This document shows, piece after piece, positions 11,505-62,482 of a stretch of 64,000 nucleotides of DNA (position 1 is its first letter; the number at the start of each line of letters is the position of its first letter). The notes beneath the pieces were generated by a model. The model was not told where the DNA came from. It saw nothing but the letters and a program-made list of their open reading frames with translations, and did no database searches. Made by a program: the position numbers and the translations under genes. The stretch spans positions 85,514 to 149,513 of the forward strand of contig JAQUOD010000001.1 in the NCBI GenBank assembly GCA_028717245.1. The letters run 5' to 3'. The DNA comes from Candidatus Omnitrophota bacterium (GTDB lineage Bacteria; Omnitrophota; Gorgyraeia; Gygaellales; Profunditerraquicolaceae).

Positions 11505-11541
11505 AATTACGAGTTACTAGTTACGAGCTTACGAGTTACTG
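11505..11541 (-). repeat. tandem heptamer array TTACGAG/TTACTAG x5 in rplN-rplX spacer
   Basis: aattacgag ttactag ttacgag c ttacgag ttactg. Confidence 0.8.
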
Positions 11542-28609: not shown

Positions 28610-28620
28610 ATTGTCTATCA

Positions 28621-28722
28621 GGTTACGTAAGGTTGCCTAAGGTTACGTAAGGTTCCATAAAGCTGCCTTTTTTAAGGTAACCTTATGTAACGTTATGGAA
28701 CCCCATGGAACGTTAGGTAACA
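28621..28722 (-). repeat. inverted arrays of 10-mers GGTTNNNTAA forming a ~45-bp imperfect hairpin in rplL-rpoB spacer
   Basis: ggttacgtaa ggttgcctaa ggttacgtaa ggttccataa ... ggtaacctta tgtaacgtta tggaacccca tggaacgtta ggtaac. Confidence 0.8.
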
Positions 28723-29122: not shown

Positions 29123-29149
29123 TTTATGAACCTCCTTTTAGACAAGTTT

Positions 29150-29221
29150 GTATCAAAGTATCAGGTATCAAGGTATCAAAGTTTTTTCTTTGACACTTTT
29201 GACACATTGATACTTTGACAC
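29150..29221 (-). repeat. GTATCAA/TTGACAC inverted octamer arrays (hairpin, loop ttttttc) in rplJ-rplL spacer, directly upstream of rplL RBS
   Basis: gtatcaaagtatcaggtatcaaggtatcaaag-ttttttc-tttgacacttttgacacattgatactttgacac. Confidence 0.85.
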
Positions 29222-29225
29222 TATT

Positions 29226-31963: not shown

Positions 31964-32035
31964 AGTGTCAAGGTGTCAAAGTATCAGAGTGTCAAAGTAA
32001 AACTTTGATACCTTGATACATGATACTTTGATACA
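31964..32035 (-). repeat. GTGTCAA/TTGATAC inverted octamer arrays (hairpin) between rpmG and tRNA-Thr
   Basis: gtgtcaaggtgtcaaagtatcagagtgtcaaag-taaaac-tttgataccttgatacatgatactttgatac. Confidence 0.85.
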
Positions 32036-33362: not shown

Positions 33363-34300
33363 CTGTATGCGAGCATGGTTGCCTCAATTAATGATGCGGG
33401 ATTGGCCAACCGGTAGTTTTTTGCGATATCAAAGGCAGTCCCGTGTAAAGGAGATGTTCTGATAAAAGGAATGCCCAATGTCAAATTTACACCGCTAAAG
33501 CCGGCTGATACCTTCAAAGGGATTAATGCCTGGTCGTGATACATGGCAATCATGCAGTCGTATTGTTTTTGCAGTGTTTTTAAGGCTGCTATATCCGCCC
33601 CCTGCGGCCCGGCTATGCTTATGCCTTTTATTTTTTTTCTTAAAAGCGACAGAACAGGTTTAATCACCCTATTTTCTTCCTTTCCTATCAGCCCATTATC
33701 AGAGGCGTGCGGATTAAGCCCGCACAATACGATGCGCGGGTTTCTTGTACGGAAGAGTTTTTTTAAGGATTCATAAGTTAAAATTACGGTTTGAAATATT
33801 GCTTTTTTGCTTAAGCATAGGGGGACGTCTTTTAAAGCAATGTGGCGCGTAACCAGGGTGATTTTTAATTTTTTATTTAAAAGCATCATGGCAAAATTTT
33901 TCGTATTTGTAACAGAGGCCAAATATTCCGTATGCCCGCTGAAATTTTTAAACCCCGCCAAACTCACTGCCTCCTTGGATATAGGGCAGGTAACCAGAGA
34001 ATCTATCTTGTTATGATTAATTAAATCCATTGCCTTATCCAGGTATTCTATGGATGCCTTGCCATATTCAGCCCGCATTTCACCGAATCTAAAATTTTTA
34101 CGTGCTACATTATTTAAATCTATAAATTTTATATCTGACACCTGACACCTGGCACCTGACACCTGATTAAATACCCACCTATCTCCTATGATAACAAAAT
34201 CAGCCAAACCTCTTAATTGAGGTATTGCTTTAGCGATAATAGCAGGGCCTACACCCGCCGGGTCGCCTATGGTAATGCCGATTTTTATTTTATTATGCAT
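33335..34300 (-). CDS. pdxA: 4-hydroxythreonine-4-phosphate dehydrogenase
   Basis: IGITIGDPAGVGP..., HTEY, synteny surA-pdxA-rsmA. Confidence 0.9.
   Translation of the reverse strand: MHNKIKIGITIGDPAGVGPAIIAKAIPQLRGLADFVIIGDRWVFNQVSGARCQVSDIKFIDLNNVARKNFRFGEMRAEYGKASIEYLDKAMDLINHNKIDSLVTCPISKEAVSLAGFKNFSGHTEYLASVTNTKNFAMMLLNKKLKITLVTRHIALKDVPLCLSKKAIFQTVILTYESLKKLFRTRNPRIVLCGLNPHASDNGLIGKEENRVIKPVLSLLRKKIKGISIAGPQGADIAALKTLQKQYDCMIAMYHDQALIPLKVSAGFSGVNLTLGIPFIRTSPLHGTAFDIAKNYRLANPASLIEATMLAYRCTLNQKKD
34135..34165 (-). repeat. in-frame tandem heptamer tract CACCTGA/CACCTGG x4 inside pdxA (encodes periodic QVSGARCQVS)
   Basis: ctgacacctgacacctggcacctgacacctg. Confidence 0.8.
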
Positions 34301-34310
34301 TTATTTGTTT

Positions 34311-34392
34311 CCGTAATCCGTAATTGGTAATTCGTAATTCTTATTTTATTTTAAAAAATTACGATTTACGATTTATGAATTACGATTTACGG
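34311..34392 (-). repeat. inverted heptamer arrays CCGTAAT x4 / ATTTACG x5 (hairpin) in pdxA-surA spacer
   Basis: ccgtaatccgtaattggtaattcgtaatt ... aattacgatttacgatttatgaattacgatttacgg. Confidence 0.85.
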
Positions 34393-34417: not shown

Positions 34418-35365
34418 TTAATCTTGCATAATTTTAATATAAGACTGCTTTTTGAGTTCGTCCAACCACGTTGCTAATGCCTCTTGCATCTTTTGGTCAA
34501 AAAGGAAGGTATAAATATCACCCTGGGCCCCAGAGATACTTTGCTGCCGGGGGGGTATTATATTATCCAGTTTAAAAATATAATATTGTTCTTCTATTTT
34601 GACCGGTGCGGAGATTTCACCTACCTTCAACCTGAATATTTTTTCTTCGATGTCTTTTCTCAACTGCCCATTCCCTGCCCCGCTCATTTTATTTACAGCC
34701 AGGAAATATTTACTGGCGACATCCTGAAATTCCTGCCCATTCCTTAAATCATTAAAGACTTTGCTCGCCAGGTCCTCTTCACCGGTATTTATGGATTCAA
34801 ATTCGCGCTGTTCGGGTAGTTTAAATTTATCGATGTTTTGCTGATAGAAATCGGTGACTTCTGCGGGATTAACCAGAATCTTGCTCTTTATCTTTATTTC
34901 GATAATAGTATACATAAGCAGCTGGTCTCTTATCTTTGATTCTAAGTCTGCCTGCACCAGCCCTTGCTTAGCCAGGGAAGTTTGAAAATCCTTCTCTGAA
35001 TCGTAACGCCTGCGGATATCGTCTATCCTAGCTTTGATCCTGCTCTCGTCTATTCTGATATTGCTTTTTTTGGCTTCCTGTAAAATAATGCGGTCTTCAA
35101 TAAGCTTGTCCATTAAATCCAGCTTTATAGATTGCATTTTACTTTCCAGGCTTCTCCCTTTAAATTCTCCCATTAATTGTACGCGCGTAAAATTAACGAA
35201 GTCGTCTAAGTCTTTCTGGGTGATGACATCGTTATTCACGATAGCGACGATTTTGTCTTCGGCGTGTAAGTTGTAAGCTGTAAGTTGTAAGCTGTAAGCA
35301 ATGGAAAAAAGCAAAAATAATGATATTTTTAAACCCTTTAACCCTTGGTTTTTGATTTTATCCAT
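34418..35365 (-). CDS. surA: SurA-like periplasmic chaperone/peptidyl-prolyl isomerase (signal peptide, short form)
   Basis: 315 aa, N-terminal signal peptide; position upstream of pdxA-rsmA as in E. coli. Confidence 0.6.
   Translation of the reverse strand: MDKIKNQGLKGLKISLFLLFSIAYSLQLTAYNLHAEDKIVAIVNNDVITQKDLDDFVNFTRVQLMGEFKGRSLESKMQSIKLDLMDKLIEDRIILQEAKKSNIRIDESRIKARIDDIRRRYDSEKDFQTSLAKQGLVQADLESKIRDQLLMYTIIEIKIKSKILVNPAEVTDFYQQNIDKFKLPEQREFESINTGEEDLASKVFNDLRNGQEFQDVASKYFLAVNKMSGAGNGQLRKDIEEKIFRLKVGEISAPVKIEEQYYIFKLDNIIPPRQQSISGAQGDIYTFLFDQKMQEALATWLDELKKQSYIKIMQD
35264..35299 (-). repeat. in-frame tandem heptamer tract (C/T)TGTAAG x5 inside surA signal-peptide region (encodes AYSLQLTAYNLH)
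   Basis: gtgtaag ttgtaag ctgtaag ttgtaag ctgtaag c. Confidence 0.8.
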
Positions 35366-40034: not shown

Positions 40035-40062
40035 TTCGTTAGCCTCCTTTTTAGATACGTTT

Positions 40063-40125
40063 GTATCAAAGTGTCAGGTATCAGGGTATCAAAGTTTTTT
40101 CTTTGATACTTTGATACTTTGACAC
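40063..40125 (-). repeat. GTATCAA/TTGATAC inverted octamer arrays (hairpin, loop ttttttc), paralogue of the 29150-29221 element; abuts trpE stop and rpsP RBS
   Basis: gtatcaaagtgtcaggtatcagggtatcaaag-ttttttc-tttgatactttgatactttgacac. Confidence 0.85.
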
Positions 40126-41612
40126 TATTTAACAATTGCCTCTATTAATGCCTTTGCCTTGTTTATAGATTCCTGGTATTCATTTTTTGGCACCGAATCA
40201 GCGACGATACCGGCACCTGCCTGAATATATGCCATCCCATCTTTAATAATTACGGTCCGAAGGGTTATGCAGGTATCCATATTATGCGAAAAGCTGAAAT
40301 ACCCTACGCATCCGGCATAGGGCCCGCGCCTTAAATTTTCCAGCTCGTCTATAATTTCCATAGCGCGTATCTTAGGGCTGCCGCTTACTGTCCCGGCGGG
40401 AAAACAGGCCCTTAAAACATCGTAGATATTATATCTCTTATCCAAAATACCCTCAACTTCACTGACTATATGCATTACGTGGGAGTATCTTTCTATGGAC
40501 ATAAACTCACTCACCGCTACCTTGCCTTTTTTACAGACCTTGCCTAAATCATTCCTGCCTAAATCTACCAGCATCAGGTGTTCTGCGCGTTCTTTCTTAT
40601 CTTCAAGAAGCTCCTTTTCTAATTGCTTGTCTTCTTTTTCATTTTTCCCGCGGGGCCGGGTACCGGCAATAGGCCGGGTGCGGGCAATGCCGTCTTCACA
40701 GCGTACCAGTATCTCAGGAGAAGAGCCGACTAAGGTAACTTCCTTTAATTTCAAAAAAAACATATAGGGAGAAGGGTTCAGGCTCCTTAAATCCCTGTAG
40801 ATATCGAAGGGGTCTTTATCTATCTTTATTTCAAAGCGCTGCGACAATACTGTCTGGATGATATCCCCCTTTTTTATATAATCCCTCGCCTTATTTACTA
40901 TTTTACAAAATTCCTTTTCTTTAAAGTTAGAAATTACTTTTATGCTGCGCTTACCAGTATCATTACGCTTTGCTTTCTTGAGCAAGGGTTTCTTCAGTTC
41001 ATTGCATATGGAATCTATTTTTTTCAGCGCCTGATAATAAATCTGCGTTTTTTTAACCCGGGGGATTTTTTTATGCGCCGGCAGGATAATGTTAACAATG
41101 ATCTTTATGGTATGGTTAATATGGTCAAAGACTAGGATGCTATCGGTAAGTATAAAGACGGAATCGGCGATCTTTAGGTCATCCGGATTTCTATCGGGCA
41201 GGTCCTCAAAGAACCTTACCATATCATAAGCCATGAAACCCACGAGCCCTCCGTAAAAGCGCGGTAGTTCTTTAATCCGGGCGGCCTTAAAATCCTGCAT
41301 GATTTTTTTAATTTCATCCAGGGGGTCATTGCGGGTAACAAAATGCCTGGCTGAACTTCTTGCAGGATAAATGACCCGGACATCCCTGCCTTTACTTCTA
41401 AAAATAAGCGCGGGGTTACTCCCTAAGAAAGAATAGCGGGCGATCTTTTCCTGTCCTTCTACGGACTCAAGGAGAAAGGCATAATCGCCTTTTTTTATTT
41501 TTAAGAAGGCAGACACAGGCGTATCTAAATCCGCGCTGATCTCCTGATAAACCGGAATAAGATTATATTTTTTAGATAGTTCCAGAAATTCTTTTAGTGA
41601 TGGATAGTACAT
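40125..41612 (-). CDS. trpE: anthranilate synthase component I
   Basis: TPVSAFLKI, LLESVEGQEKIARYSF motif. Confidence 0.8.
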   Translation of the reverse strand: MYYPSLKEFLELSKKYNLIPVYQEISADLDTPVSAFLKIKKGDYAFLLESVEGQEKIARYSFLGSNPALIFRSKGRDVRVIYPARSSARHFVTRNDPLDEIKKIMQDFKAARIKELPRFYGGLVGFMAYDMVRFFEDLPDRNPDDLKIADSVFILTDSILVFDHINHTIKIIVNIILPAHKKIPRVKKTQIYYQALKKIDSICNELKKPLLKKAKRNDTGKRSIKVISNFKEKEFCKIVNKARDYIKKGDIIQTVLSQRFEIKIDKDPFDIYRDLRSLNPSPYMFFLKLKEVTLVGSSPEILVRCEDGIARTRPIAGTRPRGKNEKEDKQLEKELLEDKKERAEHLMLVDLGRNDLGKVCKKGKVAVSEFMSIERYSHVMHIVSEVEGILDKRYNIYDVLRACFPAGTVSGSPKIRAMEIIDELENLRRGPYAGCVGYFSFSHNMDTCITLRTVIIKDGMAYIQAGAGIVADSVPKNEYQESINKAKALIEAIVK

Positions 41613-41622
41613 ATTGGGCTTT

Positions 41623-41676
41623 GAGCTTTAAGTTGTAAGCCATAAGCTTAAAGCTTAGAGCTTACAGCTTATAGTC
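41623..41676 (-). repeat. heptamer array AGCTTAN (consecutive agcttaa agcttag agcttac agcttat) with inverted partner; overlaps hisI stop codon
   Basis: gagctttaagttgtaagccataagcttaaagcttagagcttacagcttatag. Confidence 0.85.
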
Positions 41677-42018
41677 TATTTTTCTATAAAAGCACGATCT
41701 ATTTCCCGTATGGCAGGCAACGCCTGACTGGCGCACCTTAATCAGCAACGCATCCATATCGCAATCGTAAGCCACTGACTTGACAAGCTGGTAATTACCC
41801 GACGTTGCGCCTTTAATCCAGTAAACTTTGCGCGAGCGCGACCAGAAGCAGGTCTTGCCTGTTTTCAACGTCCTCTTTAGAGAAAATATATTCATATAAG
41901 CGAGCATGAGCACTTCACCGCTTCTATAGTCCTGTATTATCGCGGGGATTAACCCCTGTTTATCCAGCTTTAATTTTTTTAAACTAAATCCTTTTTTCAT
42001 TTTTATAGGCGCACGCAT
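41662..42018 (-). CDS. hisI: phosphoribosyl-AMP cyclohydrolase
   Basis: GLIPAIIQD...LMLAYMN...YWIKGATSG...[10 protein letters not shown]. Confidence 0.9.
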
Positions 42019-42758
42019 ACCCCTTTTTCTTTCAGATATTCCTTTACCTGCCTGACGGTATATTCCTGGTAATGAAAGATGGAGGCTGCCAAGCTTGCAG
42101 AAGCCTCTGTTTTAGCCAGGACATCATAAAAATGCTCCGGTTTTCCTGCCCCACCGGAAGCTATCACCGGAATGTTCACCTTTTGCGCGACAGCCCTGGT
42201 TAAAGGTAAATCGTAACCGTCTTTGGTGCCGTCATAGTCCATACTTGTCAGGAGTATCTCACCTGCACCCAGTTCCTCTGCTTTTTTTGCCCACTCCAGG
42301 GCATCTAATTCCGCAGAGGTCCTGCCACCGTTAATATAAACCTGCCAGCTATTGTCCTGTTTCTTTGCGTCTATCGCTACCACGATACACTGACTGCCGA
42401 ATTTTCTGGAAGCATCGCTGATTAAATCCGGGCATTTTACCGCCGCGGTATTTATGGAAACTTTATCCGCGCCTGCATTTAAAAGGTCGCGGATATCTTC
42501 AATATCCCTGATTCCGCCGCCTACGGTAAAAGGCATAAATATATTCTCGGCGATCTTCTCGACCAAACCAATAAGCGTCTTCCTGTTCTCAAAACTGGCA
42601 GTAATATCTAAAAATACTAGCTCATCTGCCTGCTGCTGGTCGTAAATCTTAGCTACTTCAACAGGGTCGCCCGCGTCCTTTAAGGCCACAAACCTCATAC
42701 CTTTAACCACCCTGTTTTCTTTGATATCCAGGCAGGGGATAATACGTTTCGTTAACAT
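42003..42758 (-). CDS. hisF: imidazole glycerol phosphate synthase cyclase subunit
   Basis: [13 protein letters not shown]... Confidence 0.9.
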
Positions 42759-42765
42759 TTATTTT

Positions 42766-42818
42766 GCTTTAAGTTGTAAGCTATAAGCTGTAAGCTTAAA
42801 GCATAAAGCTTATAGCTA
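42766..42818 (-). repeat. tandem heptamer array GCTNTAA x7; overlaps lipoprotein stop codon, 8 nt upstream of hisF start
   Basis: gctttaa gttgtaa gctataa gctgtaa gcttaaa gcataaa gcttata gcta. Confidence 0.85.
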
Positions 42819-43268
42819 TTTAACTTTCTTATCCAAATACCCTTTCAGCAAGTCCCAGGTTTTATTACCCATTTTACCATCTGGACTGAGATTATTTGCT
42901 TTCTGAAAAGCCCTTATTGCTTCACGGGTCTGCTTACCCATACGGCCATCAACAGATCCGGGATTATAGCCGGCATTAGTTAAAGCAACCTGTATCTGTT
43001 TTATAGTTGGCCGTGATTTTGTTTCTTGGCTGACCTTCTTTTTACCTGTTGCTTTTACCAGGCTTTCTTTCTGCTCAACAGTACTAGTTAAGGTGTCCCT
43101 TAGGCCGCCGATCTCTTGGTCTTTGGCTTCAATTTCTGCCTGTAAAACCGAAATCTGATTTTTTAATCCCTGAATTTCCAAATCCTTATCTTTGCGGCCG
43201 GTAGCGCATCCACCCAGAGAAATTAGAAAAATAGAACAGACGAAAAAAATAACTACCCTTTTAAACAT
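42816..43268 (-). CDS. lipoprotein with coiled-coil and C-terminal peptidoglycan-binding (PG_binding_1-like) domain
   Basis: signal peptide + lipobox LGGC; ...GYNPGSVDGRMGKQTREAIRAFQKANNLSPDGKMGNKTWDLL. Confidence 0.7.
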   Translation of the reverse strand: MFKRVVIFFVCSIFLISLGGCATGRKDKDLEIQGLKNQISVLQAEIEAKDQEIGGLRDTLTSTVEQKESLVKATGKKKVSQETKSRPTIKQIQVALTNAGYNPGSVDGRMGKQTREAIRAFQKANNLSPDGKMGNKTWDLLKGYLDKKVK

Positions 43269-44010: not shown

Positions 44011-44639
44011 AATTCTACAAAATTTTTCAGTATTTTTAAACCGGTTTCCTGGCTTTTCTCAGGATGAAACTGCACGCCGTATATATTCTCCCGCCAAAGA
44101 ACCGGGCTAAAGCTAATCCCGTATTCAGTAGTAGCAGCGATGATATCTTTATCCTTGGGTTGCGGATAATAGGAATGGCAGAAATATACGTAAGCATTAT
44201 CCGGTATATCTTTTAACAGGGGGCATTCCTTTGACACCTTGACACCCTGACACCTTGATACTATTTTCAACTGGTTCCAGCCCATATGCGGGACCTTCAA
44301 ATTGCCTTTAATTTTAAATTTCTTTACCTCGCCTTTTAATATCCCTAATCCTTTTATCCCTTTTGCTTCATCGCTTCTCTCAAAGAGAAGCTGCATCCCT
44401 AAACAGATACCCAGAAATATCTTTTTTGCCTTAATATGCTCCTTTAGCGCCGTCAACAGATCCTGTTTCTTTAATTCTGCTACAGCATCGGCGAATGCCC
44501 CTACCCCCGGCAATACTACCTTATCACAAACCTTGATATCTGCGGGCTTGTTGGTAACTATTGTCTTTGCGCCCATAGACTCTAAGGCCTTTTGCACGCT
44601 ATGAATATTTCCCATGCCGTAGTCAATTATGGCAATCAT
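44004..44639 (-). CDS. hisH: imidazole glycerol phosphate synthase glutaminase subunit
   Basis: MIAIIDYGMGNIHSV..., GICLGMQ, HSY. Confidence 0.9.
   Translation of the reverse strand: MIAIIDYGMGNIHSVQKALESMGAKTIVTNKPADIKVCDKVVLPGVGAFADAVAELKKQDLLTALKEHIKAKKIFLGICLGMQLLFERSDEAKGIKGLGILKGEVKKFKIKGNLKVPHMGWNQLKIVSRCQGVKVSKECPLLKDIPDNAYVYFCHSYYPQPKDKDIIAATTEYGISFSPVLWRENIYGVQFHPEKSQETGLKILKNFVELC
44229..44262 (-). repeat. in-frame octamer tract TTGACACC x3 inside hisH (encodes SRCQGVKVSKE; about 9-aa insertion relative to HisH homologs)
   Basis: ctttgacaccttgacaccctgacaccttgatactatttt. Confidence 0.8.
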
Positions 44640-46482: not shown

Positions 46483-49097
46483 TTTAGTTCCCTGATAATC
46501 TCTTTAAGTTTCTTGAATGCCTGCGGAAAATTCTCCGGTTTATTTCCCCCTGCCTGGGCAAAATCCTTCCTGCCTCCGCCGCTACCGCCGATTTCCGGGG
46601 CGATTGCTTTTATTATCTTAGCGCTATCAATATCTAAAATTTGCGTATTTAAATTTGTACCCGTAACCAACAGGGCCCCTCCAACGGAAGTAGTTGTCCC
46701 TAAGGCAACGATAACGCTTTTTTCCTTCGCTTTGATTAAATCCACGGCCTTTCTTAAGGCGTCCATATCCTGGCCTTCAATAAAACGGGCGATAACATTA
46801 ATACCGTTAATAATTTCTCCCTCTTTAATATAATTATCTATTGAGGCTCTAAGCATATCCGTCTTGCGGTAACTTAGCTTTTTTTCCAGTTCTTTTATCT
46901 GAAATAGCTTCTTCTCTAATTCCTGGGTTATCTTTTGGCTAGGGACATTTAAAAGAGAAGAAATATCAGCCAGGATATTCTCTTCTTCCTTAAGCGCCTT
47001 ATAGGCACAATCTCCTGTAAGCGCTTCTATCCTTCTTATCCCGCTGGCTATCGACCCCTCGTTAACTATCTTAAAGAGCCCGATTTGGCCGGTGCATTCA
47101 AGGTGTGTTCCGCCGCAGAGTTCTTTAGAGAAATCTCCGATTGCTACCATACGCACCTTTTCTGCGTATTTCTCCGTAAAGAATGCCAATGCCCCTTGTC
47201 TTTTAGCCTCTGCGAGGGTCAGCGTCTTTGCCTTCAAGCACGTATTATTTACTATGTAGTTATTGACTAATCCTTCTATTCTATCCAACTGTTCCCTAGT
47301 CACATCCTTAAAATGCGTAAAGTCAAAACGTAATCTATCTTCGGCTACTAATGAACCTTGCTGTTGCACATGCGCTCCCAAAATTACGCGTAATGCTGCC
47401 TGCAATAGGTGTGTGGCAGTATGATTTCTGGCTATGGATAGCCTGCGTTTAATATCCACACAGGACATTAACTCATCTGTGGTTCTAAAACTTCCGGTTT
47501 TTACCCTTCCTTTATGCACAATAACATTATCAAATTTACGGGTACCGGTTATCTGAAAGACATTCTTCCCTTTTATCAATTCACCCGTATCGCCTACCTG
47601 GCCGCCGGATTCAGGGTAAAGAACGGTTTTATCTAAAATTATCCGGGCCTCTTCGCCCGCGCTTATTTTTTTTACCGGAGTATTATCTTTAATAATCTTG
47701 ATAACCTTTGCCTTTGTCTCGTATTTGGAGTAACCCAGAAAACTAGTCTTAGCGCCTGCTAAATGCAATTCTTTAATATCAAAGACATCGCCTTTCATCC
47801 GACTCTGTAATTTAGAACGGTTTTTCTGCTCTCCTAATTCCTTATCAAATGCCTCCTGCGAGAAATTTATGCCGGCTTTCTCCAGCCAACCCCTGGTTAA
47901 CTCTAAAGGTATCCCGTAGGTATCGTACAACTGAAAGGCAAGCCTGCCGGCCCTTTGCGCGTCCTGCTTATTACTAAAACCCTTAAATTTTTCTTCAAAC
48001 AAAACGCTGCTAGAATCTAAAGTAGAAATAAAATTATTCTCTTCAGCCAGAATAATCTGGGAGATATTTTCTTTACGTTTATCCAACTCTGGATATGGCA
48101 ACTTCATAATATCGGATAAAAGAGGGGTTAATTTATAAAGAAAAGGTTTAGCTATCCCTAACGCCCTTAAATGCAGCATGCTTTTACGGATTATTTTTCT
48201 TACTACATACCCGCGGCCTTCATTAGAAGGCAATACGCCATCATAAATAGCAAAAACAATGGCACGTATATGGTCACTAACAGCATAAATAAATTCCTTA
48301 TCTGACACTTTGACACTTTGACACTTTGACACTATCTCTTTCACTATGGGTTGGAATAAATCCGTTTCAAAATTATTCGGCACCCCCTGCATAACCGCTG
48401 CCAATCTTTCCAGCCCCATACCCGTGTCAATATTCTTTTTGGGTAAAGGTTCTAATTTTCCGTCTGCTTTGCGGTTAAATTGTGTAAACACTAAATTCCA
48501 TATTTCCGGGAACCTGCCGCAACTGCAAGCCGGGCCGCAGCCAGGCTTCCCGCAACCTGCGCCCTGGTCAAAGAATATCTCAGAACATGGCCCGCATGGC
48601 CCATTTGGGCCGTTAGCTTTGGCTTCTGATGGCCAGAAATTTTCTTTATCGCCTAATTTTACGATTTTATTTACCGGAACCTTTATTTTATCTTTCCATA
48701 TGTTATACGATTCATCATCGTCTTTATATACAGAAACCCAGAGTTTATCTTCTTTAATCTTAAGCTCTTCGGTCAGGAACTCCCACGCCCAGGTAATTGC
48801 CTCTTCCTTAAAATAGTCCCCGAAAGAAAAATTTCCCAGCATCTCAAAAAAGGTATGGTGAGACGGGGTCTTGCCTACCTTATCTAAATCATCGGTGCGC
48901 AGGCAGCGCTGGCTGCTGGCAGCGCGGCTAAAACCGGTTAAATGCCCCAGGAATTGCCTCTTGAATTGGTTCATTCCGGCAGGAGTAAATAATACGGTAG
49001 GGTCGTCCTTGGGGATAAGCGAATCGCTTTCTACGATTTTATGCTTTTTAGCTTTAAAAAAGATGGGGAATTTTTCTCTTAATAAATCCGCTTTCAT
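46479..49097 (-). CDS. alaS: alanine--tRNA ligase
   Basis: start MKADLLREKF at 49097 overlapping recX stop (ATGA..TAA); ORF-track start 49154 is an extension. Confidence 0.9.
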   Translation of the reverse strand: MKADLLREKFPIFFKAKKHKIVESDSLIPKDDPTVLFTPAGMNQFKRQFLGHLTGFSRAASSQRCLRTDDLDKVGKTPSHHTFFEMLGNFSFGDYFKEEAITWAWEFLTEELKIKEDKLWVSVYKDDDESYNIWKDKIKVPVNKIVKLGDKENFWPSEAKANGPNGPCGPCSEIFFDQGAGCGKPGCGPACSCGRFPEIWNLVFTQFNRKADGKLEPLPKKNIDTGMGLERLAAVMQGVPNNFETDLFQPIVKEIVSKCQSVKVSDKEFIYAVSDHIRAIVFAIYDGVLPSNEGRGYVVRKIIRKSMLHLRALGIAKPFLYKLTPLLSDIMKLPYPELDKRKENISQIILAEENNFISTLDSSSVLFEEKFKGFSNKQDAQRAGRLAFQLYDTYGIPLELTRGWLEKAGINFSQEAFDKELGEQKNRSKLQSRMKGDVFDIKELHLAGAKTSFLGYSKYETKAKVIKIIKDNTPVKKISAGEEARIILDKTVLYPESGGQVGDTGELIKGKNVFQITGTRKFDNVIVHKGRVKTGSFRTTDELMSCVDIKRRLSIARNHTATHLLQAALRVILGAHVQQQGSLVAEDRLRFDFTHFKDVTREQLDRIEGLVNNYIVNNTCLKAKTLTLAEAKRQGALAFFTEKYAEKVRMVAIGDFSKELCGGTHLECTGQIGLFKIVNEGSIASGIRRIEALTGDCAYKALKEEENILADISSLLNVPSQKITQELEKKLFQIKELEKKLSYRKTDMLRASIDNYIKEGEIINGINVIARFIEGQDMDALRKAVDLIKAKEKSVIVALGTTTSVGGALLVTGTNLNTQILDIDSAKIIKAIAPEIGGSGGGRKDFAQAGGNKPENFPQAFKKLKEIIRELK
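48302..48333 (-). repeat. in-frame octamer tract TTGACACT x4 inside alaS (encodes SKCQSVKVSDKE)
   Basis: ctgacactttgacactttgacactttgacact. Confidence 0.8.
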
Positions 49098-59486: not shown

Positions 59487-59500
59487 TTTCAGCCTTAAGC

Positions 59501-60652
59501 TTATTTAGCCATTTCTTTGATTAACTGCAATGCGATAATGTTACGCTGAATCTGGTTTGTACCTTCGTAAATTTGGGTAATCTTGGCATCGCGCATATAT
59601 TTTTCCGCGGGATAATCCCTCATATAACCGTAACCGCCGAGTATCTGTACGGCATCAGTAGTAACTTTCATGGCTACGTCTGAGGCATACATCTTGGCCA
59701 TGGCCGAATCCTTGCCTACGTCTTTACACCCGCCATCTATTTCCCTGGCGCAGGAATAAACTAAGGCCCGGGCAGCTTCAATTTCCGTAGCCATATCTGC
59801 CAACATCCATTGTATACCCTGAAAGCTAGCTATGGTTTTACCAAACTGCTGCCTCTCTTTAGCATATTTTACCGCCACATCCAGCGCCCCCTGGGCAATA
59901 CCTAAGGCTTGAGCAGCTACTCCCGGCCGCGACATATCAAAGGTCTTCATAGTCACGATAAAACCCATGCCTTCTCTGGATAAAAGATTTTCTTTGGGGA
60001 TTTTGCAATCAGTGAAAATAAGTTCACGCGTTGAAGAAGCGCGGATGCCTAATTTTTCTTCTTTTTTACCAAAGGTAAAACCAGGCGTGCCCTTTTCTAC
60101 TATAAATGCCGAAGCACCCCGAGCCCCCTTAGTCTTATCCGTCATGGCAATAACCGTATAGACATCGGCATCCCCGCCGTTAGTAATAAAGTGTTTAAGG
60201 CCATTTAAGATATAATGGTCCCCGTCTTTACGCGCAGTAGTCTTAATGCCGGAGGCATCAGAACCTGCTTCCGGTTCAGTAATGCCGAAGGCAGCGATTT
60301 TTTTGCCTTTTGCCAGCTCCGGCAGGTATTTTTTCTTCTGCTCGTCATTGCCGAATAAGACAATCGGAAATGTCCCTAAGGCCGAGGCAGCATAGCATAC
60401 CGCGATACCTCCGCAGGCACGCGATAATTCTTCGGTAGCAATACACAAGTTTAATACGCTGTTAGCCATACCGCCATACTCAGCAGGAATAAATAAACCG
60501 AATAAATCCGCATCCGCAATGATCTTGATAATTTCCCAAGGGAATTCTTCGGTTTGATCGTGTTTGGCCGCTACCGGGCGGATCTTCTCGTCGGCGATTT
60601 TACGCGCCAGTTCCTGAATCATCTTTTGTTCGTCACTTAGCAGGTAATCCAT
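59501..60652 (-). CDS. acyl-CoA dehydrogenase (butyryl-CoA dehydrogenase-like)
   Basis: 383 aa ACAD fold; adjacent to etfBA. Confidence 0.85.
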
Positions 60653-60746: not shown

Positions 60747-60774
60747 ATTATACCATACTGAAATTATTTTACAA
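60747..60774 (-). promoter_or_regulatory. candidate sigma70 promoter TTGTAA-16-TATAAT for bcd-etfBA; -35 overlaps the GNAT gene stop codon
   Basis: rc reads TTGTAAaataatttcagtatggTATAAT. Confidence 0.4.
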
Positions 60775-61218
60775 GGTTTTTAGAAGGGCGATTTCCTGGC
60801 AATTGGGGAATTTGCAGCAGTTAATGCATTCTGCCCAAATTTTATGGGGGAGAGCAGAATTCTTTACTCTTTTGAACCCGAATTTCTTAAAATACCCGGG
60901 CTGATAGGTAAGCACAAATATCCTCCTGGCTGCTAAGGCCCTGGCTTCATTTAAACATGCCAGGATTAATTCCCTGCCTATACCCTTGCCTTGTTTTTGT
61001 TTGGCTACGGCCAGGGATTTTATCTCCGCCAGGTCCTCCCAGGAGATATGTAAAGCACAACAACCGATAATTTTCCCGCCTTCTTCAATTACCCAGAAAT
61101 CCCGCAAGTTTTCATATAATTCATTAAGCGAGCGCGGTAACATCAGGTCCTGTTTGGCAAAAAAATTAATCAAACCCTGTATTTGTTTTATATCTTTTAT
61201 CTTTGCTTTTCTAATCAT
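60769..61218 (-). CDS. GNAT-family N-acetyltransferase with C-terminal Cys cluster (CINCCKFPNC)
   Basis: 149 aa; acetyl-CoA binding motif QKQGKGIGRELI. Confidence 0.7.
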   Translation of the reverse strand: MIRKAKIKDIKQIQGLINFFAKQDLMLPRSLNELYENLRDFWVIEEGGKIIGCCALHISWEDLAEIKSLAVAKQKQGKGIGRELILACLNEARALAARRIFVLTYQPGYFKKFGFKRVKNSALPHKIWAECINCCKFPNCQEIALLKTL

Positions 61219-61224
61219 CTTCTT

Positions 61225-61260
61225 CGGCTTATAGCTTACAACTTATGGCTTACGGCTATT
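61225..61260 (-). repeat. tandem heptamer array (G/A)GCTTA(T/C) x5 overlapping glgC stop codon
   Basis: cggcttat agcttac aacttat ggcttac ggctatt. Confidence 0.8.
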
Positions 61261-62482
61261 TAATTTCTGCCCCCTTCTCCACTACCACGATGCCCGATTT
61301 GGTAACATAAAACCTTTTTCTATCCTCTTCAAGATCATAGCCGATTACCATACCTTGCGGGATATGCACATCCTTATCAATAATGGCCTTTTTTATCTTG
61401 GCGTATCTGGCTACATTGACGCCTTCCATAATTATAGAATCATAAACCTCTGAATAGCTGTGGATTCTTACATCCGGAGAAAGTATAGAACGCTGAACTT
61501 TGCCTCCGCTGACAATGCATCCTCCGGCAATCAGTGAATCCAGCACCAGCCCGACGCGGCCGGTGATCTGATCCCCGGAAAAGACTGTCTTAGCCAGGGG
61601 AAACTGCTCTTGATAGGTCCTGATCGACCAGTCTTTATCGTAAAGATTAAATACCGGGTCAACCTGCACTAAATCCATATTTGCTTCATAATAAGCATCA
61701 ATAGTTCCGATATCCCGCCAATACTGCGCCTCTTTTTTATTCTCATCAACAAAATTAAAAGCAACGACCTTAAGGCCTTTTTTGAGCATCTGCGGGATGA
61801 TGTCTTTGCCGAAATCATGGGTAGAATTGTGTTTCTTAGCGTCCTGCTGCAGTTCCTCTTCCAGGACCGGATGTTTAAAAACATAGATGCCCATAGAGGC
61901 ATAGACCTTATCCTGATTCTGGGGTATGGTCTTGGGCCTTGCCGGCTTCTCCTGAAAACCGCTCACCCTGCCTATTGCGTCTACCTCTACTACGCCTAAA
62001 TGCGGGGCTTTATTTTTATCCATCTCTACCACCCCGACGGTCAAATCCGCATCAGCCTGACGATGAAAATCTATCAGGGTATAATAATTCATTTTATAGA
62101 TGTGGTCTCCGGCCAGGATTAAAACTTCATCCGGATTATCAATTTCCAGGGTATAGAGGTTTTGATAAATGGCATCGGCAGTGCCTAAATACCAGGAATC
62201 CCCTACTCTTTGTTGTGCCGGTAATAATTCGATAAACTGGCCTAACTCAGAAGGCAGGATATTCCATCCCAAACGGATGTGCCTCTGTAAAGATGCGGAC
62301 TTATATTGCGTGAGGACATAAATTTTGCGCAGCCCCGAATTGATGCAATTACTCAGGGTAAAATCAATAATCCGGTATATCCCGCCAAAAGGCACTGCGG
62401 GTTTGGTGCGGTCTTTGGTCAGGGGCAATAGCCGCTCGCCCTTACCGCCTGCCATGATAAAAGTTAAAACGCGTTTCCTCAT
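61256..62482 (-). CDS. glgC: glucose-1-phosphate adenylyltransferase
   Basis: [25 protein letters not shown]. Confidence 0.9.

Follow-up and report, generated by a model that had tools for sequence, protein, structure and literature searches.

Several classes of described short repeat resemble the subject of this report, an array of tandem heptamers at the junction of hisI and trpE in a 64,000-nucleotide stretch of DNA from a Candidatus Omnitrophota bacterium (assembly GCA_028717245.1, contig JAQUOD010000001.1, positions 85,514 to 149,513 of the forward strand; hereafter the window). Short tandemly repeated repetitive (STRR) heptamers of cyanobacteria are lineage-specific, intergenic and dispersed, and their arrays of variable length are used for fingerprinting. 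The repetitive extragenic palindromic (REP) sequences and REPINs associated with REP-associated tyrosine transposases (RAYTs) and the Rickettsia palindromic elements (RPEs) are short high-copy palindromes at gene ends, and RPEs also enter conserved genes, where they keep the frame and are translated. Borg elements of Methanoperedens carry pervasive tandem repeats, both intergenic and, in frame, inside coding sequences, where they encode low-complexity peptide segments. Like STRRs, the Omnitrophota arrays are lineage-specific dispersed tandem heptamers, and the cyanobacterial plasmid genes of the PF05635 family that we examined are embedded in such arrays; STRRs, however, are not described as forming defined arms, about 30 nt long, on either side of a gene. 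In contrast to REPs and RPEs the arms consist of tandem units, no RAYT was found with them and they have no sequence relation to RPEs. The Borg repeats are likewise found both between genes and in frame within them, making low-complexity peptides, but their genic units are perfect and multiples of 3, whereas the units here measure 7-10 nt, divisibility by 3 holds for the whole insert only, and the arms form hairpins. We regard the hisI/trpE array, with moderate confidence, as a two-armed copy, lacking an open reading frame (ORF), of a dispersed palindromic element whose arms are about 30 nt of tandem 7-10-nt units, and we read it as a selfish cassette similar to the intervening sequences (IVSs) of 23S rRNA.

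The IVS of Coxiella burnetii is a selfish element in 23S rRNA with an S23p ORF and a 28-bp stem of terminal inverted repeats that is cut by RNase III; three or four tandem heptamers, variable in number among strains, lie upstream of the S23p ORF, its means of movement is unknown, and ORF-less IVSs are also known (PMC4990558). The elements described here resemble the IVSs of Leptospira and Coxiella in their terminal inverted repeats with a stem of about 28 bp (about 25 pairs in the hisI array), in an optional PF05635 ORF between the arms with ORF-containing and ORF-less forms, in a sporadic distribution and in being regarded as selfish; in Coxiella, too, tandem heptamers adjoin the ORF. They differ from the classic IVSs, which lie in rRNA helices 9, 25 and 45 and are excised by RNase III, in occupying mRNA operon junctions and coding loops, in having arms that are explicit tandem arrays and, for the hisI copy, in having no ORF. 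TAACTGA heptamers occur as 2-6 tandem copies just before start codons in marine Beggiatoaceae, cyanobacteria and Bacteroidetes (MacGregor 2015, PMC4679880), and no PF05635 link, hairpin form or in-frame insertion in conserved enzymes was reported in that study. These repeats share with the present arrays an end a few nucleotides before a start codon, stops in all frames of the forward orientation, overlap with the upstream stop, tolerance of the reverse orientation within ORFs and an occurrence in ribosomal-protein operons. The unit here is TAAGCTN/CTNTAAG, however, and the arms are inverted, whereas those of Beggiatoa are almost all direct (one inverted in 170). Beyond the remark on Coxiella, we found no literature on Omnitrophota repeats or on genes of this four-helix-bundle family together with heptamers.

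Anatomy of the hisI/trpE array

Gene identities in the window were read by eye from the translations of about 65 ORFs, unit families and their loci were taken from Tandem Repeats Finder output and direct reading, and relatives were compared as the hisF loci of 80 Omnitrophota genomes, about 820 kb in all. Over the window, Rfam at gathering thresholds yielded two tRNAs only and no rRNA. The array, the codons it supplies and the genes adjoining it and its two siblings are the following.

41619..41678, minus strand: two-armed TAAGCT-family element at the hisI/trpE junction (sequence and RNA fold)
41662..41673, minus strand: HisI codons Y-K-L and TAA stop, from array units (orthologues end RKI(K)-stop)
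40125-41612, minus strand: trpE-like gene (translation)
41662-42018, minus strand: hisI (PF01502)
42003-42758, minus strand: hisF (translation/profile)
42816-43268, minus strand: peptidoglycan-binding lipoprotein gene (translation/profile)
60769-61218, minus strand: GNAT gene (translation/profile)
61256-62482, minus strand: glgC (translation/profile)

An earlier note on this DNA had described four AGCTTAN heptamers that carry four different bases in their last position and follow inverted units, and the sequence bears this out: AGCTTAA (41645-41651), AGCTTAG (41652-41658), AGCTTAC (41659-41665) and AGCTTAT (41666-41672) come after gctttaa/gttgtaa/gccataa at 41626-41646. As a whole 41619-41678 consists of eight tandem heptamers, four of them AGCTTA plus A, G, C or T. 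Four different bases in four units are expected by chance about 9% of the time, the pattern is absent from the other copies, and we give it no meaning. On the minus strand the element begins with TAG (41678-41676), continues with a 5' arm of ACTATAAG CTGTAAG CTCTAAG CTTTAAG (41675-41647) and a 3' arm of CTTATGG CTTACAA CTTAAAG CTCAAAG (41646-41619), and is followed by CCCAAT and the trpE ATG (41612-41610), giving the scheme TAG-(CTNTAAG)x4-(CTTANAG)x4. Because AAGCTT is self-complementary, the complement of (CTNTAAG)n, namely (CTTANAG)n, comes after it, and the array is a palindrome that fills the junction; its mirror-image arms abut with no spacer and no PF05635 ORF between them. The sense RNA of 41613-41684 is predicted to form a stem of about 25 pairs, interrupted by a single mismatch every 7 nt (-21.7 kcal/mol, z -3.9), and the antisense strand of the array folds at -27.8 kcal/mol (z -5.0). 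Every forward CTNTAAG unit contains TAA, so that none of the three frames stays open through the arm. Two independent Logan assemblies of the same species, SRR22315506 and SRR22315508, carry an identical array and show no copy-number variation, and the array is therefore not an assembly artefact.

Arrays at the ends of hisI, the lipoprotein gene and glgC

HisI of the window ends in ...I D Y K L followed by TAA, a stop that lies at 41662-41664 on the complementary strand. Within the array are the codons for Y, K and L (41665-41673), and the D codon (41676-41674) straddles the 5' edge of the element. The protein ends in ...SCFYRKI or ...RKIK in 75 of about 80 Omnitrophota orthologues, and that of the window reads RKI-DYKL-stop; its PRA-CH domain ends at residue 111. 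At the level of sequence, this comparison shows four HisI codons and the stop to be array sequence and the native stop to be displaced, as the earlier note had suspected when it derived YKL and TAA from the array. In most relatives trpE starts 0-10 nt after the hisI stop, often in an overlapping TAATG, and is translationally coupled to it. Here DYKL-TAA is encoded by the array, and both the native hisI stop and its stop-start coupling with trpE have been lost. The closest relatives, L003 and L007, have no array at this junction, and the element was therefore gained in this lineage. The start of trpE in the window follows the new hisI stop by 49 nt (41613-41661) and has no Shine-Dalgarno sequence; the stem would approximate stop and start.

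The two sibling arrays were said in the earlier note to supply the stop codons of the lipoprotein gene and of glgC.

42759..42818, minus strand: two-armed TAAGCT-family copy at the lipoprotein/hisF junction (fold -18.0 kcal/mol, z -2.5)
61219..61258, minus strand: single-arm TAAGCT-family copy at the glgC/GNAT junction (sequence; no significant fold)

Read on the minus strand, the first is TAG CTATAAG CTTTATG CTTTAAG CTTACAG CTTATAG CTTACAA CTTAAAG CAAAATAA, followed by the hisF ATG, and the second is TAG CCGTAAG CCATAAG TTGTAAG CTATAAG CCGAAGAAG, followed by ATG. The array's TAG is indeed the stop codon in both, but it stands at the native position and displaces nothing. The lipoprotein ends in ...YLDKKVK at the same point as about 70 orthologues (...YLYKKVK), and GlgC, ending in ...EKGAEIK, has 408 aa, as do its orthologues (...AKGTEIK), so that the stop displacement found in HisI has no counterpart in GlgC. 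The view that all three arrays had fused onto gene 3' ends thus applies to hisI and only trivially to the other two genes. The three arrays stop 6-9 nt short of the ATGs of trpE, hisF and the GNAT gene.

Dispersed arrays in the window

A doubled-unit pattern with at most two mismatches matched the window 33 times as compared to 9.9 +/- 3.4 in shuffles, and none of 100 shuffles reached 33. When arms were scored as period 7-10 with at least three copies, the window held 17, whereas 30 dinucleotide shuffles averaged 0.37. The arms of the 64 kb fall into three or four unit families: TAAGCTN at five loci, TGTCAAAG (with a 7-mer variant) at six, TAACTCG/TTACGAN at two, and a 10-mer family. The loci other than those given above are the following.

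35265..35299, plus strand: single-arm TAAGCT-family array, (TGTAAGT/TGTAAGC)x5, in opposite orientation; in frame on the minus strand
59487..59503, minus strand: remnant of two units, TAAGCTTAAGGCT, in the spacer from the acyl-CoA dehydrogenase stop to the etfB-like start (sequence)
29150..29222, minus strand: TGTCAAAG-family hairpin at rplJ/rplL, TAG-(TGTCAAAG)x4-AAAAAA-(CTTTGATAC)x4 (fold -36.3 kcal/mol, z -9.4)
40060..40126, minus strand: TGTCAAAG-family hairpin at trpE/rpsP, beginning at the trpE stop (AAATAG; fold -26.1 kcal/mol, z -8.1)
31964..32035, plus strand: TGTCAAAG-family hairpin at tRNA-Thr/rpmG (fold -38.1 kcal/mol on the plus strand vs -24.6 on the minus strand)
44231..44258, minus strand: single-arm TGTCAAAG-family array inside hisH, in frame (translation, orthologues)
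48303..48333, minus strand: perfect (TGTCAAAG)x4 array inside alaS, in frame (translation, orthologues)
34135..34166, minus strand: (CAGGTGT)x4.6 array inside a pdxA-like gene, in frame, encoding QVSGARCQVS (translation)
11507..11539, minus strand: single-arm TAACTCG-family array at rplN/rplX, TAACTCG TAAGCTCG TAACTAG TAACTCG TAA (sequence)
34312..34391, minus strand: TTACGAN-family hairpin at surA-like/pdxA-like (fold -24.5 kcal/mol, z -5.4)
28620..28721, minus strand: hairpin with arms of tandem 10-mers GGTTACNTAA at rplL/rpoB (fold -32.8 kcal/mol, z -3.5)

Forward TAAGCT copies stand only at gene ends because their units contain TAA and close all frames, and the family occurs within a gene only in the reverse, stop-free orientation, where 35265..35299 is read on the minus strand as IAYSLQLTAYNLHA in the signal-peptide region of the SurA-like gene. 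The arrays in hisH and alaS encode VSRCQGVKVS and VSKCQSVKVS respectively, the former adding about eight residues relative to most orthologues and the latter leaving the length unchanged. The irregular 8-mer of the rplN/rplX arm recurs in the 5' arm of the PF05635 cassettes of L014 and L203.

The repeated sequences were also compared with one another. An alignment of about 72 nt, 5' TAG included, unites the three TGTCAAAG hairpins, of which the one at tRNA-Thr/rpmG is inverted relative to local transcription. Their second arms have the irregular unit lengths CTTTGATAC, CTTGATAC, CTGATAC, TTTGATAC in common, the 7-nt third unit included, and the two TAAGCT hairpins have the same unit order. Arm length is narrow at any period, with a median of 31 nt (interquartile range 28-35). 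Orthologous arrays in L014 and L020 differ by point changes only and have equal numbers of units. Because irregular units are shared within one genome, these comparisons show array copies of one genome to derive, as judged from their sequences, from one another and not from independent slippage.

The AlaS linker ...CQSVKVS... is encoded by TGTCAA(A)G units in the window (48303-48333) and also in L077:264-290, L048 and L061:521-549, in AlaS proteins that are only about 58-65% identical; this array may be ancient with its unit kept, or the same unit may have occupied the site anew. Two TGTCAAAG hairpins have similar 3' flanks, which read ACAAAC-T-TCTAAAAGGAGG (29130-29150 and 40040-40060, minus strand). 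The likeness spans the Shine-Dalgarno sequences of rplL and rpsP, and the element may carry a ribosome-binding site or the flanks may be the usual context of ribosomal-protein genes. Two attempts to find a preferred strand were abandoned. Array orientation relative to gene strand could not separate transcription from replication, nearly all genes being co-oriented, and the asymmetry of G·U and A·C mismatches favoured the sense strand in the rplJ and trpE TGTCAAAG hairpins, the antisense strand in the hisI array and the non-transcribed strand in the tRNA-Thr/rpmG hairpin, and was uninformative.

Arrays at related loci in Omnitrophota

About 110 arms were found in the 80 hisF loci. Sites of recurrence are the hisI/trpE junction (about 10 genomes), the junction upstream of hisF and the end of trpE, together with one loop each of HisH, AlaS and HisF in which the insertions are always in frame. 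The HisF loop AIDAK^...W[QE]V is occupied in about 25 genomes by inserts of 15-108 nt that are stop-free and always a multiple of 3. The units at these sites differ between genomes, and one unit can be found at several loci of a single genome (GTCTACA in hisH and hisF of L074, CAGAAGA in L068, GTCGCAG in alaS and hisH of L055). Going by sequence, such a pattern of sites is what would be produced by a dispersing element filtered by selection that survives only where it is harmless. In two pairs of related genomes (L071:6399-6530 vs L072:6400-6465, and L004:1030-1132 vs L015:6415-6452) a common hisF-loop array carries an extra nested array or segment in one member, which suggests stepwise accretion at sites that were occupied before.

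PF05635 genes between inverted arms

A 124-aa gene lies between hisB and hisH in L014 (3695-4151) and L020 (3704-4185), at a junction where the two genes abut in the window (44639/44640). Its inverted 35-nt arms, TAG TAACTTG TAAGCTCG TAACTAG TAACTAG TAA ... TTACTAG TTACGAG TTACTAG TTTACTAG TTACTA, mirror each other, the odd 8-mer included. The product belongs to PF05635/TIGR02436 (S23p), whose name is '23S rRNA intervening-sequence protein', a four-helix bundle distantly like the DGR protein Avd; its PDB relatives 2gsc and 2rld have five chains each. A metagenome scan for TAAGCTNTAAGCTNTAAGCT returned 120 loci, six of them with complete PF05635 genes, and five of these six genes lie exactly between forward and reverse TAAGCT arms and the sixth between TCGATNC arms. 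Relatives with TAAGCTN arms and a PF05635 ORF are L091, L109, L148, L162 and L185. The spacer between arms is bimodal, being either 6-132 nt (30 ORF-less hairpins) or 350-441 nt (four cases, each with one PF05635 ORF).

To remove ascertainment bias, five homologues were picked starting from the protein and solely by how long their contigs are. They lie in ilvB/ilvN (twice), pheS/pheT (Parcubacterium), cca/aminotransferase (Spechtbacterium) and a glycosyltransferase cluster, and all have inverted TAACT(A/C)G arms. Plasmids of cultured bacteria (Nostoc, Trichormus, Anabaena, Calothrix, Picosynechococcus, Geminocystis, Pseudanabaena, Oscillatoria, Azospirillum and Treponema) contributed another fourteen PF05635 genes, which again sit within arrays of heptamers or octamers. 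Taken together, 25 of 25 PF05635 genes, from five phyla (Omnitrophota, the candidate phyla radiation (CPR), Cyanobacteria, Spirochaetota and Alphaproteobacteria), adjoin at least one array, and 23 of them lie between two, with arms that are mostly inverted and usually of 4-5 units. The gene is co-directional with its annotated neighbours except upstream of the Oscillatoria copy (L245). This consistent association of tandem-heptamer arms with PF05635 genes across phyla is an unexpected by-product of the analysis of the hisI array.

Some PF05635 genes with heptamer arrays lie within CRISPR-cas operons, twice at cas6/cas4 and once at cas10/cmr3, and may be relevant to previous accounts of 23S_rRNA_IVP among the genes found near cas loci.

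cas-operon copies: L212 (Pseudanabaena pPg_01), L241 (Anabaena sp. 90 pANA02), L215 (Picosynechococcus PCC 7003)

The sole transposase-like gene seen near any cassette is a 241-aa gene of a Spechtbacteria locus (L210:3641-4366) with a weak Y1_Tnp (PF01797) match, 1.6 kb upstream of the cassette. Phages were considered as vectors and rejected: none of 20 viral contigs with TAAGCT arrays has a PF05635 gene, and no viral contig has a TGTCAAAG array.

Origin of the arrays

The palindromic hairpin, the dispersed set of several families, the copies within coding regions and the relatives with a PF05635 gene all go beyond the earlier note. In reading the hisI array as a copy of an IVS-like selfish cassette, we infer that the hairpins are the 'empty', non-autonomous form of a cassette composed of an arm, a small ORF and an inverted arm, with the classic IVSs of 23S rRNA as its rRNA-resident subset. 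In this scheme insertions would survive where the stem rejoins the flanks or where the peptide sits in a surface loop, and tolerated places would include coupled stop/start junctions, rRNA helices and protein loops. Long stems may be RNase III substrates, by analogy with IVSs. Spread may use the arrays as portable homology, or it may need the pentameric four-helix-bundle protein to bind about five tandem units. We saw no evidence for a host function of the hisI copy, and regard it as a tolerated insertion that uncouples trpE from hisI.

Several points weigh against this reading. The 64-kb window has no PF05635 gene, and the link of its arrays to such a gene is family resemblance only. No transposase, recombinase or reverse transcriptase was tied to the elements at the loci examined, and by-eye reading found no transposase-like ORF among the roughly 65 of the window. 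Inverted repeats cannot shed cargo by simple recombination, and the reading therefore does not account for the relation between empty and loaded forms. Single-arm copies cannot form hairpins, no compensatory changes were seen between the orthologous arms of L014 and L020, and possible RNase III cleavage of the stems is pure analogy. In three cases (L212, L219 and L245) the arrays are direct, not inverted, and a scan selecting for TAAGCT arrays supplied six of the 25 cassettes, which biases ascertainment on one side. The four-helix-bundle proteins flanked by TAAGCTN are diverse (28-49% identity), and protein and unit do not strictly co-vary. Co-variation was also sought in the TAACTNG group, which is tight (59-76% identity) but was chosen by homology, and this was not decisive.

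Four other explanations were weighed. The arrays might be simple-sequence repeats of the long simple sequence repeat (LSSR) or STRR type, made in place by slippage at unrelated loci and possibly serving as contingency loci. In favour of this, no long simple-sequence unit is commoner in bacteria than the heptamer, with slippage proposed as the cause (Mrazek 2007, as cited in PMC4679880), the heptamer number upstream of S23p varies among Coxiella strains (PMC4990558), and the alaS array is a perfect 4-mer. Slippage does not fit, however, with the recurrence of regular and irregular units together at several loci of one genome, with arms held to 28-35 nt at periods 7, 8 and 9, with orthologous arrays that differ by point mutations and not copy number (L014/L020) or with a hisI/trpE array identical in three assemblies, and it cannot yield the inverted pairing of arms, mirrored 8-mers included, so that we find it quite improbable. 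It is also rather unlikely that the arrays are cis-regulatory mRNA sites at which an oligomeric RNA-binding protein sets translation of trpE, hisF and the GNAT gene, with candidate binders being a TRAP/HutP-like protein that reads NAG at 7-nt intervals or one of those put forward for the TAACTGA repeats (S1, Csp or CsrA). Arrays that end 6-10 nt before start codons lacking a Shine-Dalgarno sequence, one of them upstream of trpE, are consistent with such an operator, as is a layout that matches the one described for TAACTGA repeats (PMC4679880). AG in the sense-strand units also leans this way, being present in 63% of arrays vs 44% expected (CT 29%); this is a trend only, and a rule that units end in AG behind an AAATAG head was rejected as a definition. 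Set against an operator are the arrays within ORFs, inverted at tRNA-Thr/rpmG or following the last codon of unrelated genes, the several unrelated unit families of one genome, and the coupled stop-start overlaps that most relatives have at these junctions in place of arrays. AAG/TAG does recur every 7 nt, but there is no competing terminator of the kind that goes with TRAP or HutP regulation.

Movement in trans of REP/REPIN-like elements, by a RAYT or by a Y1 (HUH) transposase of the IS200/IS605 type that reads a hairpin and a conserved tetranucleotide, would account for high-copy imperfect palindromes and for the TAG, ATAG or GTAG found 5' of most copies whatever their unit family, the transcription-inverted copy included, and the weak Y1_Tnp match of L210 may be counted with these. 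We nevertheless give it a slim chance. The window has no Y1 transposase, the only cargo seen is PF05635 and never a RAYT, and the 5' TAG head may be a partial unit, as many units end in AG, and is often the host stop codon; moreover, single-arm copies, in-frame coding copies and direct-repeat flanks are atypical of REPs, and the elements are not confined to extragenic sites. Stable stem-loops in intergenic spacers could also suggest intrinsic terminators or attenuators between operon genes, and one antisense-strand terminator-like match was found at 42786-42817. The terminator scan, however, gave no minus-strand hit at any array, the sense strand has no U-tract after the stems, and the elements lie inside conserved operons with essential downstream genes (rplL, rpoB, rpsP), which makes this explanation scarcely credible.

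The IVS-like reading can be extended to a proposal that we put forward tentatively and consider doubtful as a whole. PF05635/TIGR02436 proteins and arms of about five tandem heptamers would form a previously unrecognised class of very small selfish cassette in operon junctions of many phyla, in which a pentamer reads about five units, ORF-less arms and hairpins are offspring comparable to miniature inverted-repeat transposable elements (MITEs), and 23S IVSs, cyanobacterial STRR heptamers and TAACTGA-type repeats are one system. This would join two orphans, the tandem heptamers of bacteria (STRR, LSSR and TAACTGA), which are of unknown origin, and the large PF05635 family, whose function has been unknown since 1993. 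The physical association in 25 of 25 cases leads to a testable hypothesis that the protein binds or propagates the arrays, and offers a rationale for the sites that are habitable. At the locus itself the array explains the rewritten end of an essential biosynthetic gene and the broken conserved stop-start coupling, and in many Omnitrophota HisF, HisH and AlaS have gained low-complexity peptides from related insertions. The arrays also bear on metagenome-assembled genomes (MAGs), both in annotation (stops, starts and apparent 'insertions') and in assembly, where they coincide with gaps, e.g. in L058.

Additional observations

The gap in L058 is a run of N within a long ATACGAG/ACGATTC array downstream of hisI (L058:7289-7399), and such arrays seem to interrupt short-read assemblies. 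Six genomes have TAGTAGR/TAGATAG arrays at one gene junction, about 2.5-3.7 kb upstream of hisF, where the unit, in contrast to the other sites, is conserved across genomes.

TAGTAGR/TAGATAG arrays: L035:3312-3332, L036:3483-3511, L046:3554-3579, L060:2144-2178, L067:3452-3473, L074:2297-2321

The hisF gene at L033:6001-6771 has an in-frame stop (...RLVE-stop-IAKNIF...), which may be a sequencing error, a pseudogene or a recoded site. In the window the 3' end of hisF overlaps the hisI start by 16 nt (42003-42018), and the listed hisI ORF has a long basic N-terminal extension, so that its true start may lie downstream.

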